Positions 22,480-60,964 of a stretch of 64,000 nucleotides of DNA are shown one piece after another. Position 1 is the stretch's first letter; every line of letters starts with the position of its first letter. The notes under the pieces were generated by a model. That model had not been told where the DNA came from. It searched no databases and saw only the letters and a program-made list of their open reading frames with translations. Source of the stretch: Dehalococcoidia bacterium (GTDB taxonomy: Bacteria > Chloroflexota > Dehalococcoidia > UBA2979); NCBI GenBank assembly GCA_965262725.1, contig OZ253555.1:1856001-1920000 (forward strand), written 5' to 3'. The position numbers were made by a program, and so were the translations under genes.

Positions 22480-24127
22480 CGAAGAAGAGTGCGCGAGCGG
22501 CTGGGGTTGGGTGCTCCGCTGTAGCTGGGACAATGGTTTTTGACCGAATCACGTCACAGCCACAGGGAGCACCCATTCGATGTTAGCAACGAGCAGCCCC
22601 GACCGGATACACATCGCCTTCGACGACGACCGCCTCGTGGACCACGCGGGCCTGCTGCTCCCGGCCACGCTCGCTGGCCGGCTCGGCCTCCGTGAACTGG
22701 CAGACGCCCAGCTCGACCTCGGTGACGCAGCGGGGCGGGCGAACGTCGGCGACAAGCTGATGACTCTCATCGCCTCGGCGCTCGCGGGCGGCGACTGCAT
22801 CGATGACGCCGATGCCATGCGCTCAGGCGGCGCCGGGCGCGTGCTCGGCTGCACCGTGAAGGCGCCGTCCACCCTCGGGACCTTCCTGCGCAGCTTCCGG
22901 TGGGGCCACGTCCGCCAGCTCGACCGCGTCAGCCGCGAGTTGCTGGCCCGCAGCTGGGCGGCCGGGGCGGGACCCGGCGCGGCGCCGTTCACGATCGACC
23001 TCGACTCGACGCTCTGCGAGACCTACGGCCTCGCCAAGGAGGGCGCCCGGCACCACGGCTACACGGGCGTGCGCGGCTATCACCCGCTGCTCGCGGTGGC
23101 GGCCGGGACGGGTGAGGTGCTGATGGCGCGGCTGCGCGGGGGCCGTGCCAACACCGCTCGGGGGGCCGCACACTTCCTGCGTGAGACGGTGGCGCGGGTG
23201 CGCGACGCCGGGGCCTCGGGGCAGCTCACGCTGCGCGCCGACAGCGGCTTCTACAGCCACGCTGTCGTCGCCGCCTGCCGCAAGCAGGATGTCCGCTTCT
23301 CCATCACCATTCGCCAGCAGCCGAACGTACGCCGGCTGATCGAGGCGATACCGGAAGAGGACTGGACGCCGATCCCGTACTGGCTGCCGGGCGGCGCCGC
23401 TGTCGCCGAGACGACCTACACGCCGTTCCAGCACACGGGGGACGCCACCGCGGTGCGGCTCATCGTGCGGCGCGTCACGCCGACGCCCGGCTCACAGCTC
23501 GCGCTCTTCGTGGACTACAGTTACCACGCCTTCATCACCAACCGCGCGGGGGAGATGATGGAGCTGGAGGCCGACCATCGCCGTCACGCCGAGATCGAGA
23601 ACGCGATCCGCGACCTCAAGTACGGCGTCGGGTTGAACCATCTCCCATCGGGCCGCTTCGCCGCGAACGCGGCGTGGCTCGCGGTGCAGGTGATCGCGCA
23701 CAACCTCGCCCGCTGGACGGCGCGCCTCGGGCTCGGCGAGGGAATCATGACGACCAGGACGCTCAGGCGGCGCTACTTCTCTCTCGCCGGACGGCTCACC
23801 CGCTCTGCCCGGCGGTGGACTCTGCACCTCCCGAAGCGCTGGCCCTGGGCAGAGCAGCTGGCAGCCGCGCTCGCGCGACTACGGGCGATACCGCTCCCGG
23901 CCTGACGCTCGCTCACAGCGCCGACCCGGGTCCGAGGCTCGCGCCAGCATGCCCGCGCACGCCTCGCGCACCCTCGCGCCCGCACCCTCAGCGCCCACGA
24001 GCGGTGCTGAGCGACGGCTTCTGGCTCCGGCCCGCCCCCGGCGCCGCCCGGCGAACGCCGGCACGCCCGCCGAACTCTCCGGCAGCCCGGCACCCCGCCT
24101 CGTCAAGCTTCGATCGGTGGATTCGAG
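22480..24127 (+). mobile_element. IS1380-family element copy 1 (left IR not found)
   Basis: Transposase plus right end ...GATCGGTGGATTCGAG shared with 26007 and, inverted, 58051. Confidence 0.85.
22580..23905 (+). CDS. IS1380-family transposase
   Basis: TIDLDST, GYHPLL, LRADSGFY, RRHAEIENAIRDLK, PSGRFAANAAW. Confidence 0.95.
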   Translation: MLATSSPDRIHIAFDDDRLVDHAGLLLPATLAGRLGLRELADAQLDLGDAAGRANVGDKLMTLIASALAGGDCIDDADAMRSGGAGRVLGCTVKAPSTLGTFLRSFRWGHVRQLDRVSRELLARSWAAGAGPGAAPFTIDLDSTLCETYGLAKEGARHHGYTGVRGYHPLLAVAAGTGEVLMARLRGGRANTARGAAHFLRETVARVRDAGASGQLTLRADSGFYSHAVVAACRKQDVRFSITIRQQPNVRRLIEAIPEEDWTPIPYWLPGGAAVAETTYTPFQHTGDATAVRLIVRRVTPTPGSQLALFVDYSYHAFITNRAGEMMELEADHRRHAEIENAIRDLKYGVGLNHLPSGRFAANAAWLAVQVIAHNLARWTARLGLGEGIMTTRTLRRRYFSLAGRLTRSARRWTLHLPKRWPWAEQLAAALARLRAIPLPA

Positions 24128-57874: not shown

Positions 57875-58880
57875 GAGCGGTCGGCTCCCTCGAGCAGCGC
57901 GTTCAGCCCCGCGGCGGGCGGTGCGGTTTCTGCTCGGGAGACTGGGCGCCGTTTCCGCCCCTCCGCTCAGGACTGCCCGGTCTGTCGGCTCTCCATCTCC
58001 GGGAGGCCCGGCCGAGACGCTGCCGGCAGTCTCCGATGCCGGCCCCTTATCTCAAATCCACCGATCGAAGCGTGACAGGGCGGGATTCCGGGCTGCCGGA
58101 GAGTTCGGCAGGCGTGCCGGCGTTCGCCGGGCGGCGCCGGGGGCGGGCCGGCGCTGTGAGCGGGCGTCAGGCGGGGAGCGGAAGCGCCCGTAACCGCGCC
58201 AGGGCGGCTGTCCACTGGCCGGCCCAGGGCCAGCGCTTCGGGAGGTGCAGGGTCCAGCGCCGGGCAGAATGGGTGAGCCGTCCGGCGAGAGCGAAGAAGC
58301 GCCGCCTGAGCGTCCTGGTCGTCACGATTCCCTCGCCGAGCCCGAGGCGCGCCGTCCAGCGGGCGAGGTTGTGCGCGATCACCTGCACCGCGAGCCACGC
58401 CGCGTTCGCGGCGAAGCGGCCCGAGGGGAGATGGTTCAGCCCGACGCCGTACTTGAGGTCGCGGATCGCGTTCTCGATCTCGGCGTGACGGCGATGGTCG
58501 GCCTCCAGCTCCATCATCTCCCCGGCGCGATCGGTGATGAAGGCGTGGTAGACACCCCATGTCCGTAACGCGCAAGGGGCGCCCCCACCCGGGCAGCGAA
58601 TCGGGGTGTCGGGTGCGCGATGCGCAAGGAGATCGTGAGCAGTCGGAGCGCCGTGTTAGAGCCGTGCGCGCGGCGGTGTTCCGAGGTCGACGCCGCCGGA
58701 GAGAATGGTCTTGGCCGGCGTGAGATGGGTGTCGGCTTCTGCGGACATGCGGTGGCTGGCCGACCGCTGCCGGTCGCCCGTGACGCGGGGTGCGCAGGTA
58801 CTCGCCTCGCCGAGTTGCGCCCTCAACGAGCTCCAGACCCTGGATGAGTCGCGGCCCGCCGAGGCGCTCCGCGACCTCCG

Positions 58881-60107
58881 TCAGGCGGCGAGCTCAGCGT
58901 CCTCGGTGCCCAGGCCGCCCCAGGCAGTCTCCTCGTCGTAGAGCCGGCGCTTGTGCAGGCAGCCGTGCAGGAACGCGACCAGGCGGTTGGCGAGGGCGCG
59001 CAGCGCCTGGTTGTGCCCGTCGCCGAGCGCCCGCCGCTGCTGGTAGTACGCCCGGCACCCGGGACTCGCCTGGAGCGAGCAGAACGCCCACATGTGTATC
59101 GCGTCGTAGAGGCGCCGGTTCCGCACGTGGCGCGCGGTGACCGCCCGCTTCCGCCCCGATGATATGGTGAGCGGCGACGTGCCCGCGTAGTTCCTGCGGG
59201 ACTTCGCGGACACGAAGCGTTCGGGGTCATCCCCGAACTCGCCCAGCACCCGGGCGCCGAGCACGGGCCCCAGGCCCGGCATCGACAGGTAAATCGCGGC
59301 GTCCGGGTGCTCCTCAAGAGACGCGGCCAGCTTCGACTCCAGTACCTCGAGTTGCCGGTTGATCTCCTGGAGCTGGGCAACCTGGGCGAGCACGCTGTCG
59401 GCGAACGCCTCGCTGAGCGCGGGCGCGACCGGGAGCGTGCGGAGCCGGAGTACCTCGCGTATCTCTTCCGCCCGCGTGTCCAGGTTGCGCTTGCGGCCTC
59501 CGCGCCTGAGCGCCGCGCGGAGCTGCGTCCGCGTCAGCTTCGCCGCCGCGAGCGGCTCCGGGGCGACGGCCAGCACCGAGAGCGCATCGGGATGCGTGAG
59601 GTCGGGGAAGGCCTGGAGTGCGGCCGGGAAGTACTGCAGCAGCGCGCTGCGCAGCCGGTTGCTCTCGCGGGTGCGATTCCAGACCAGCTGCTGCTGGGCG
59701 CGGGCGCGCACCTGCACGGCGGAGGCGAGGGCGCTGTCGCCCGCGACCGGCCGGTGGTTGTGGCTGTCGGTGCGGACGAGGTTCGCGAGCATGCGCGCAT
59801 CGCCCCGGTCCGACTTCCCGCCGCCGACCTGGTGTCGCTCGCGGTAGAGGGCCGCCACCCGCGGATTGATGGCGTAGACCCGGTAGCCCGCGCCGATGAG
59901 CGCTGCGACCCACGGGCCGCGGTCGGTCTCGATGCCGACCACGACCTGGCCGGCCTCCTGTGCATGCTCGGCGAGCAGCGCATGGAGCGCGGTCATGCCC
60001 TCCGCTCCCTCGGGGAGTCGCTTCGCCGCGAGGCTCTCGCCCTCCTCGTTCATGAGATGGACATCGTGATGGTCCTCGGCCCAGTCGTCCCCCACGTACA
60101 CCGTCAA
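58881..60107 (-). CDS. IS110 DEDD recombinase
   Basis: VGDDWA, GIET, KSDRGDA (RuvC-like DEDD); PGLGP...GEFGDDPERF, AGTSPLTISSG, ALRALANRL. Confidence 0.95.
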   Translation of the reverse strand: MTVYVGDDWAEDHHDVHLMNEEGESLAAKRLPEGAEGMTALHALLAEHAQEAGQVVVGIETDRGPWVAALIGAGYRVYAINPRVAALYRERHQVGGGKSDRGDARMLANLVRTDSHNHRPVAGDSALASAVQVRARAQQQLVWNRTRESNRLRSALLQYFPAALQAFPDLTHPDALSVLAVAPEPLAAAKLTRTQLRAALRRGGRKRNLDTRAEEIREVLRLRTLPVAPALSEAFADSVLAQVAQLQEINRQLEVLESKLAASLEEHPDAAIYLSMPGLGPVLGARVLGEFGDDPERFVSAKSRRNYAGTSPLTISSGRKRAVTARHVRNRRLYDAIHMWAFCSLQASPGCRAYYQQRRALGDGHNQALRALANRLVAFLHGCLHKRRLYDEETAWGGLGTEDAELAA

Positions 60108-60149
60108 CCCGTGCTCCCTTCCGTCCCACCTGTCCGTCCCACCTGGCTG

Positions 60150-60355
60150 GCTAGACCCACGGGGCTGCTCCGCAACGAGCTAATGGCACGGTGCTCTACC
60201 GGCACGACACCCCATCAGTGCATCGCAGGCCCGAACGAACCAGCCGGGGCACGGTCTACCACTGGAGGTCGCAATCGCCTCAGCTATTACTAGTGCTCTC
60301 CGGCTGGCGGGTCCGGAACCAGTCTCCCGGATCGCTCTGGTCCTCTGGTTCGGCT
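60150..60355 (-). ncRNA. Predicted IS110 bridge RNA
   Basis: Two internal-loop stems holding sequences that match this element's target (GTAATAGCT, GTGGTAG) and donor (ATGGGGTGTC, CCATTAG); RNA ends approximate. Confidence 0.85.
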
Positions 60356-60964
60356 CCCATTAGCTGTAGCTGGTGAAGAGCGCGAGCTGGGAGCCGGGCG
60401 CCGGCTTCACGCGCCGCACGATAAGCCGCACCGGGGCAGCGTCCTCCCTGTGCCGGAACGGGGTGTAGGTCGTCTCGGCGACAGCGGCGCCGTCATCCAG
60501 CCAGTACGGGATCGGCGTCCAGTCCTCTTCCGGGATCGCCTCGATCAGCGCGCGCACGTTCGGCTGCTGGCGGATCGTGACCGAGAAGCGGACATCCAGC
60601 GCGCGGCAGGCGGCGACGACGGCGTGGGTGTAGAAGCCGCTGTCGGCGCGCATCGTCAGCTGCCCGCTCGCTCCGGCGCCGCGCACCCGCGCCACCGTCT
60701 CACGCAGGAAGTGGGCGGCGCCGCGGCCGCTGCTCGCGCGGCCCTCGCGCAGCCGCGCCATCAGCACCTCGCCTGAGCCGGCCGCCACCGCGAGCAGCGG
60801 GTGATAGCCGCGCGCGCCGCTGTAGCCGGGCTGCCGGGCGCCCTCCTTCGCCAGGCCGTAGGTCTCGCAGAGCGTCGAATCGAGGTCGATCGTGAACGGC
60901 TGGGAATGACAACTCCATTTGGCCCCACCTTGATCCTTGAAACTGGCCCCACCCCCGGGTGTGG

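Follow-up and report, generated by a model that had tools for sequence, protein, structure and literature searches.

An IS110-group insertion sequence with a predicted IS621-type bridge RNA in a high-GC Dehalococcoidia genome, and copies of it with different target guides

IS621 of Escherichia coli has a recombinase that acts with a 177-nucleotide (nt) bridge RNA (PMC11208160, PMC11208158, PDB 8WT6), and its promoter is described as being reconstituted across the junction of right end and left end in the circular form (PMC11208160). The latter paper also reports bridge RNAs predicted in the left ends of 85.7% of the IS110 elements in ISfinder, and the use of thousands of orthologues. Bridge-RNA recombinases became known in 2024, and in NCBIfam the protein family is already called an RNA-guided transposase. 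Elements of the IS1111 group, or seekRNA elements, carry their guide RNA in the right end and have long subterminal inverted repeats. Here we describe an IS110-family element of 1812 bp in a stretch of 64,000 nt (the window) from the genome of a Dehalococcoidia bacterium (contig OZ253555.1, positions 1,856,001 to 1,920,000). It occupies window positions 58552-60363 on the minus strand, counted with the left copy of its CT core, and all features below are given in window positions and lie on that strand unless stated otherwise. The element is very probably an intact IS110-group insertion sequence with a DEDD/serine recombinase and an IS621-type bridge RNA in its left end. A sequence-only reading of the window had already proposed such an RNA in a high-GC host, and the host is indeed rich in G and C, with 70.6% in the genome (one contig, 3.67 Mb) and 69.8% in the window.

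The ends of the element are fixed by at least five copies in the same genome, all of which diverge exactly at 58552 and 60363. The gene that it interrupts encodes an IS1380-family transposase, and the insertion is clean at the CT core. At the left junction, GCTACAG-CT-AATGG (60357-60370), the left target (LT) GCTACAG in the IS1380-family gene (60364-60370) meets the left CT copy (60362-60363) and the right donor (RD) AATGG (60357-60361). At the right junction, ATGGGGTGT-CT-ACCAC (58545-58560), the last bases of the element, forming the left donor (LD) ATGGGGTGT (58552-58560), are followed by the right CT copy and the right target (RT) ACCAC (58545-58551 together). Every related insertion listed likewise has CT at each of its two junctions. 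The empty target GCTACAG-CT-ACCAC, which the sequence-only reading had reconstructed, is real: in the same genome the target gene has 17 paralogs without an insertion, and these align straight across the joined flanks, one of them with a 1-nt deletion beside the core; the insertion was scarless. A short CT core at both junctions and the lack of a target-site duplication are features of the IS110 group.

The recombinase gene (58881-60107) encodes 408 amino acids (aa) from a TTG start, as listed. Its product contains PF01548 (E = 1.3e-34) and PF02371 (E = 6.9e-15), both above the Pfam cut-offs, and scores 197 bits against the NCBIfam model NF033542, "IS110 family RNA-guided transposase," for which the cut-off is 140. 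A phmmer comparison with the IS621 chain 8wt6_A gave E = 5.4e-9; in this alignment the catalytic D8, the D-x-x-D pair D100/D103 and S317-G318 of the Tnp domain all have counterparts in IS621. Like the IS621 protein, then, the recombinase has a DEDD RuvC-like domain and a Tnp domain with a catalytic Ser-Gly, although it is a distant and longer relative (408 versus 326 aa). The ISCro4 transposase (PDB 9t56) is the same kind of two-domain recombinase and is likewise distant (phmmer E = 3.4e-7), a comparison confined to the proteins. The description of the element as intact, made in the sequence-only reading, was borne out at this level by the full open reading frame (ORF), the catalytic residues, and a second copy in the genome whose protein is identical at 407 of 408 positions.

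The non-coding left end measures 254 nt (256 nt in the chance and copy comparisons), and the four guide strings that the sequence-only reading had proposed were all located where it had placed them. The left target guide (LTG), GTAATAGCT (60282-60290), comprises 7 nt plus the CT core; it has the same sense as the target's top strand and hence pairs with the bottom strand. The right target guide (RTG), GTGGTAG (60256-60262), is the reverse complement of the core plus ACCAC. The left donor guide (LDG), ATGGGGTGTC (60206-60215), is identical to the left donor in the window copy, and the right donor guide (RDG), CCATTAG (60180-60186), is the reverse complement of the core plus AATGG. The RTG, LDG and RDG of the window copy match at 7/7, 10/10 and 7/7 positions. 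Chance occurrences expected in 256 nt of left-end composition are 2.5e-2 for GTGGTAG, 4e-4 for ATGGGGTGTC and 6.2e-3 for CCATTAG, and three exact guides in the right order are therefore not attributable to chance. Indeed, the 10-mer ATGGGGTGTC occurs only twice on the two strands of the 64-kb window, once in the right end of the element and once in the proposed guide. The order LTG-RTG-LDG-RDG and the strand paired by each guide, with LTG and LDG pairing with the bottom strand and RTG and RDG with the top strand, match the IS621 model as given in PMC11208160, which also has a 9-nt LTG that includes the CT core.

To compare guides with flanks we used relatives from a scan of one genome per species, in which 549 relatives were found and 80 loci kept. 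A recognizable left end and donor-guide motif was present in 70 of the 80; 54 remained after removal of identical left ends and, with four copies from the element's own genome, made up 58 distinct left ends. The closest of the 80 kept from 549 come from Dehalococcoidia metagenome-assembled genomes, with protein identities of 93, 82 and 66 to 69%, followed by Actinomycetota (Mycobacterium, Nocardia, Rhodococcus and Smaragdicoccus) at about 58 to 64%. These relatives share with the window element the termini CT-AATGG... and ...TGGG[G/A]TGT-CT, the RNA architecture, the donor guides and the candidate junction promoter; they differ from it in target guides and target sites, and those from Actinomycetota have a longer 5' stem-loop.

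Flanks were taken only from insertions with placeable ends, and loci in which a contig end cuts the flank were dropped. Right ends were placed by the conserved terminal motif, immediately past which the flanks diverge in ten multi-copy genomes. The LTG matched its own flank at 5.11 of 8 positions and the flanks of other elements at 2.90 (63 distinct guide/flank pairs), and the RTG matched its own flank at 4.43 of 6 positions and those of other elements at 2.43 (51 distinct pairs); none of 5000 permutations did as well in either case, although the related insertions are phylogenetically clustered and the permutation tests consequently overstate their independence. The left signal extends from -1 to -7, falling from 0.97 to 0.46 over a background of 0.24 to 0.33 at most positions and 0.63 at -1, and for this reason the LTG of the family is taken as 9 nt including the core. 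On the right, the RTG tracks the flank at +1 to +4 and faintly at +5. The RTG of this family thus consists of the core plus 4 to 5 nt, unlike that of IS621, which has four bases, the core plus 2, according to PMC11208160. Covariation of target guides with flanks in homologs, on which the sequence-only reading had staked its proposal, was accordingly found in about 60 related insertions, and the structure also holds.

The structure that we tested was written by hand and has 31 pairs in five helices, made up of a 5' stem-loop and the outer and inner stems of a target-binding and a donor-binding loop, the same parts as in the left-end RNA of IS621. Over the 58 distinct left ends, standard pairs filled 98.3% of 1796 cells and 17 of the 31 pairs showed changes on both sides. 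The 5' stem-loop (GAACCAG...CTGGTTC, 60316-60351) forms helix 1, with 93.8% of cells paired and both-side changes in 3 of 5 pairs. Helix 2, the outer stem of the target-binding loop (5' strand 60293-60308, 3' strand 60239-60252), has 14 pairs, 98.8% paired and 8 of them compensatory; helix 3, the inner stem-loop GAGG...CCTC (60265-60281), is 98.7% paired, with both sides changed in 26, 19 and 19 sequences at three pairs. In the donor-binding loop, the outer stem (helix 4; 5' strand GCAC 60218-60221, 3' strand 60172-60176) is 100% paired, its pair 176:231 being G-C in 34 sequences and A-U in 24, and the inner stem-loop GTGC...GCAC (helix 5; 60191-60205) is 100% paired and almost invariant. The stems CCAGCCGG..GCAC/GTGC..CCGGCTGG, GAGG/CCTC and GTGC/GCAC, picked out earlier from the single sequence, were thus confirmed with compensatory changes. 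None of 500 shuffles reached any of the measures, and partners slid by 1 to 3 columns paired in 24 to 45% of cells. Related sequences can beat shuffles without any structure; this caveat is countered here by the drop in the slid controls and by the many distinct pair types. RNAalifold independently found both target-loop stems, outer and inner, and the inner donor-loop stem. It also offered a helix between bases 1-7 (CTAATGG) and the RDG. A transcript begun at the junction promoter would not include those bases, its start being downstream of them, and we therefore take the match as guide-donor complementarity and not as a helix within the RNA. An Rfam search of 58300-60600 (E up to 1) matched no family to the left end. 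Its sole match, to RF02464 (Ms_AS-4, a small RNA of Actinobacteria; 59202-59283, plus strand; 51.7 bits, gathering score 50), runs antisense within the Transposase_20 coding region and is probably due to conservation of IS110 coding sequence, not to a distinct small-RNA gene.

The donor guides vary far less than the target guides. The left terminus CTAATGG is invariant in 58/58 distinct left ends, and in the RDG the bases CATTAG occur in 58/58 and the preceding C in 56/58. In each of the 31 distinct combinations, LD and LDG are alike at 8 of 9 positions (TGGG-TGTC). The one position that varies shows G/G (guide/donor) in 11 combinations, A/A in 11 and guide-G/donor-A in 9; guide-A/donor-G, the sole combination unable to pair with the bottom strand even by wobble, was never seen. 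The leading A of the LDG 10-mer matches in the window clade and is mismatched in 23 of the 31 combinations, and the conserved LDG is therefore 9 nt long and covers only the first core base. Thus the 10-mer of the sequence-only reading stood at 10/10 in the window copy, but family-wide only its last 9 nt, TGGGGTGTC, match the donor. An LDG that reaches only the first core base distinguishes this element from IS621, as do its 70% GC host, its 329-nt right end and the fact that it is known here from sequence alone.

Bases beside the guides add to the likeness. The base 3' of the RDG, a C at 60179 in the window copy and complementary to the G at target position -1, complements the LTG -1 column in 58/58 distinct sequences (C:G in 46, G:C in 12). 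This is the handshake relation seen in relatives of IS621, in which the donor-loop handshake position covaries with target position 7 (PMC11208158). In the target loop, the AC at 60254-60255, adjoining the RTG, is complementary to the GT that ends the left donor; across the family A[C/U] at this place can pair with the invariant GT of the LD, and as these positions hardly vary the agreement is one of consistency rather than covariation. Handshake bases and scarless insertion at CT are common to this element and IS621, and a candidate junction promoter would fit the one described for the circular form of IS621 (PMC11208160).

The candidate junction promoter consists of the -35-like hexamer TTGCGC (58570-58575), 17 nt upstream of TCTAAT, a candidate -10 box that spans the core and forms only when circularization brings the right and left ends together. 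As a sequence pattern only, a TTG-hexamer stands 17 to 18 nt upstream of TCTAAT in 46/46 distinct right ends and reads TTGAC- in 43/46, the canonical form being that of most relatives and not of the window element. The non-coding right end that contains the hexamer (58552-58880) is 329 nt long, and only its last 27 nt or so are common to the relative L020. It is about 336 nt long in the 93% relatives L018 and L019 and about 40 to 65 nt in most others. Its extra 300 nt or so (58580-58880) gave no Pfam match in three frames or ORFs and no Rfam match, and the frame that continues from the recombinase gene contains stops.

By homology with IS621 we infer transcription of the RNA, its binding by the recombinase, present activity and reprogrammability. 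The element would excise as a circle, in which the joined ends would form a promoter (TTG-type -35, TCTAAT -10); transcription of the bridge RNA from it would begin just inside the left end. The LDG (TGGGGTGTC) and RDG (CCATTAG) would then hold the two strands of the circle junction, and the LTG (GTAATAG+CT) and RTG (the complement of CT+ACCAC) would hold the strands of a target reading ..ATAG/ACAG-CT-ACCAC. A recombinase tetramer would exchange strands at the CT core, the handshake bases beside the RTG and RDG would, once the first exchange had taken place, pair with the strands coming in, and insertion would proceed without target duplication.

Copies in the same genome carry this comparison further. 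Besides the window copy there is a second full copy, c2 (L002, G000:C1:678319-680118), with 98% identical DNA. Copies c3 and c4 have both ends and are interrupted at element position 1044/1045, and the same point of interruption is found in c5, from which about the first 630 bases are missing; a single right-end fragment and two left-end remnants of 42 and 39 nt were also found. All copies start with CT-AATGG and end with ATGGGGTGT-CT, and their flanks differ. When the left ends of the four copies for which one is available were aligned, variation was seen in 10 of 14 guide columns, as opposed to 12 of the 195 others (Fisher p = 1.5e-8). It is concentrated in the LTG and RTG, and no donor guide differs between the four. 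Mapping the copies and comparing their flanks, the check that had been suggested from the window, thus revealed copies with different target guides at different sites, and these give indirect support to the idea that the element is possibly reprogrammable. The window copy and c2 have recombinases identical at 407/408 positions and differ in both LTG and RTG, their DNA differences numbering 31 in the left end (256 nt), 3 in the coding region (1227 nt) and 1 in the right end (329 nt). Copy c2 shares several left-end variants with c4, a 93% copy, and its RNA module looks exchanged or fast-evolving. The match of guides to own flanks is LT 6/8 and RT 4/6 in c4, LT 5/8 (7/8 with wobble) and RT 5/6 in the window copy, and a moderate LT 4/8 and RT 4/6 in c3. 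A tandem repeat of about 13 nt (ACAGGTGGGACGG-like; about 60119-60144), between the donor loop and the ribosome-binding site, is present in two copies in the window element, three in c3 and one each in c2 and c4.

Several observations count against the reading of the element as an intact bridge-RNA insertion sequence, beyond the clustering of relatives noted above. The LTG of the window copy matches its own site at only 6/9 positions (8/9 with wobble), with two U:G wobbles and one true mismatch, just as the sequence-only reading had described; a random 9-mer reaches 6/9 with a probability of 0.0086 per position, so that this match alone is not significant, and the putative LTG is validated solely by the family-wide covariation. 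The RD/RDG pair, being nearly or wholly invariant, offers no covariation test. The guides of c2 mismatch its own flanks (LT 4/8, RT 2/6). Each of the two flanks of c2 is repeated elsewhere in the genome and the two are never contiguous there, and the RTG of c4 matches the right flank of c2 at 5/5; we considered a rearrangement between copies, or insertion in trans guided by a c4-like RNA. E60, the remaining acidic residue, was read by eye from the I-E-T motif, where the phmmer alignment is offset by one residue. The -35 boxes of the window copy and its two nearest relatives are weak (TTGCGC, TTGCGA and TTGCCC), a promoter/terminator scan of the integrated element returned 0 sites and no sigma-70-like promoter, and none of the 24 runs listed with the element sequence is an RNA run. 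Folded as a single sequence, the left end gains no stability over shuffles (z = -0.46); in its minimum free energy (MFE) fold several LTG bases pair with bases adjoining the RTG. The expectation that the guides lie unpaired in the fold therefore held in the consensus fold, which leaves both loops open, and failed in the MFE fold for a few bases of the LTG; single-sequence folds are uninformative at 70% GC. Finally, at 329 nt the right end exceeds the 254-nt left end in length, an arrangement not typical of the IS110 group. A left end longer than the right is lacking in the window/L018 clade and found in most relatives, and it appears to be the only sequence-testable IS621-type feature that the element does not have.

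A long right end is what might be expected of an IS1111-type element with a seekRNA in that end. Such an element would share with ours the DEDD recombinase family and the RNA-guided choice of target and donor, but the guides of the window element are in its left end; the right end holds no target- or donor-matching string at the thresholds that found all three exact left-end guides, no fold signal (z = -0.20) and no Rfam match, and in most relatives the right end shrinks to the short form while the left-end RNA is kept. We regard this explanation as barely credible. It is also highly improbable that the left-end motifs act as DNA sites for protein binding, that is, as internal copies of the ends whose likeness to a bridge RNA is incidental. 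LDG and RDG are direct and inverted copies of the termini and (nearly) invariant, and alone cannot discriminate such sites from RNA guides. However, LTG and RTG track sequences outside the element, which binding sites in terminal repeats would not predict, the stems around the guides are kept by compensatory changes, a constraint at the RNA level, and the mismatches tolerated are of the wobble type (at the variable LDG position, G/A occurs 9 times and A/G 0 times).

A bridge-RNA element it may be, and the window copy could nevertheless be an immobile relic that has lost expression or recombination. The degenerate -35 box TTGCGC, limited to the window clade (3/46), the unexplained extra length of the right end, and an LTG that differs from that of c3 by a C-to-T change and mismatches its site once would all fit a relic, as would the fate of the other copies, 3 of the 5 longer ones having been knocked out by another element and two sites holding only the 39- to 42-nt remnants. 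Yet the ORF is full length with its catalytic residues intact, the 98% identical c2, with its 407/408 protein at a different site, argues for recent movement, and the change in the LTG keeps a U:G wobble and exactly matches three empty ..ATAG-CT-ACCAC sites. A metagenome contig that skips exactly the 1812 bases of the element points weakly in the same direction, its shorter side being 24 letters and its flanks repeats. On balance we consider a relic unlikely. Weighing the near-identical second copy against the poor -35 box and the length of the right end, we think it somewhat more likely than not that this particular copy is still active.

The metagenome sequence compared with 58252-60663 consisted of contigs only, from four runs of DNA or unknown type (X1, X2, X4 and X9). 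In these the summed contig depth over the IS1380 flank exceeded that over the IS110 element by a factor of 100 to 1000. The contig mentioned above comes from X2. Other joints, which skip 1823 to 1825 bases with replaced letters, were set aside as derived from the very abundant IS1380 paralogs. The contig joints are not taken as evidence of excision, on which these data say nothing reliable.

The site ..ACAG-CT, in paralogs of one IS1380-family gene, is where the window copy and the two left-end remnants are found. The remnants, L012 (G000:C1:459269-459310) and L014 (G000:C1:1610502-1610540), are 100% identical to the start of the element. They occupy this site in two further IS1380 paralogs, and what followed in the element has been deleted, together in one of them with about 40 nt of the target. 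A further locus, L015 (G000:C1:2592019-2592084), located some 200 nt past another IS1380 paralog, begins like a related but different left end (79% over 67 nt, with the same CTAATGGG terminus) before diverging; it is probably the remnant of a sister element. Uninterrupted paralogs occur in the window at about 23121-23921 and in 16 other places in the genome. Of these 17 empty paralogs, 14 have no CT core: 13 read ACTACAG-TT-ACCA, in which the change from CT to TT is a synonymous AGC-to-AGT change in a serine codon, and one has a 1-nt deletion there. The other three read ..TATAG-CT-ACCAC, whose ATAG-CT-ACCAC is exact to the guides of the window copy and thus a better match than its own site. 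Occupied sites number 3 of 6 among paralogs with a CT core and 0 of 14 among the others, the 14 being near-identical and hence not independent observations. The core changes in empty paralogs are possibly target escape, or just lineage history.

The insert that interrupts three of the copies, here called IS-B, is 1713 bp long and is itself of the IS110 family (PF01548 and PF02371). It occurs at L098:896-2608 (G000:C1:125095-126807), G000:C1:3421720-3423432 and 3476388-3479815, the last site being occupied by a head-to-tail dimer, with the joined ends visible at its internal junction. IS-B is present four times in all, only inside the studied element and always at position 1044/1045, in the opposite orientation and with an AG core. 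Its left end holds TTCAAAAG, a 7/8 match to its left target CTCAAAAG. The base beside the IS-B core is T in the three invaded copies and C in the two intact ones, the window copy and c2.

These observations can be drawn together, tentatively and with considerable doubt, into a hierarchy of three levels. IS-B would insert only into the studied recombinase gene, the studied element would insert into a conserved motif of IS1380 transposase genes, and targets would escape by single-base changes in the core or beside it, while the bridge-RNA module would diversify or be exchanged about 10 times faster than the recombinase gene, a rate based on 31 differences in 256 nt versus 4 in 1556 nt. If true, this would be a natural arms race, with guides swapped between RNA-guided elements.

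The terms "bridge RNA" and "IS110" are absent from the matches listed for the literature on Chloroflexi, Dehalococcoidia and Actinobacteria, although the subfamily may still have been described among the thousands of orthologues predicted. The window element leaves knowledge of the mechanism unchanged. More unusual is that guides have diversified in a single genome while the recombinase has stayed nearly invariant, and that RNA-guided elements are nested. Bridge recombinases are under development as programmable tools for DNA insertion, and orthologues with different properties are useful raw material; the assets of this one are its 70% GC host and its longer RTG of the core plus 4 to 5 nt. 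Near-identical recombinases (407/408) with differently programmed target loops amount to a natural, ready-made reprogramming experiment. For the biology of the family, no part of the element changes faster within one genome than its target guides, and they belong to RNA-guided elements that are aimed at other transposase genes.

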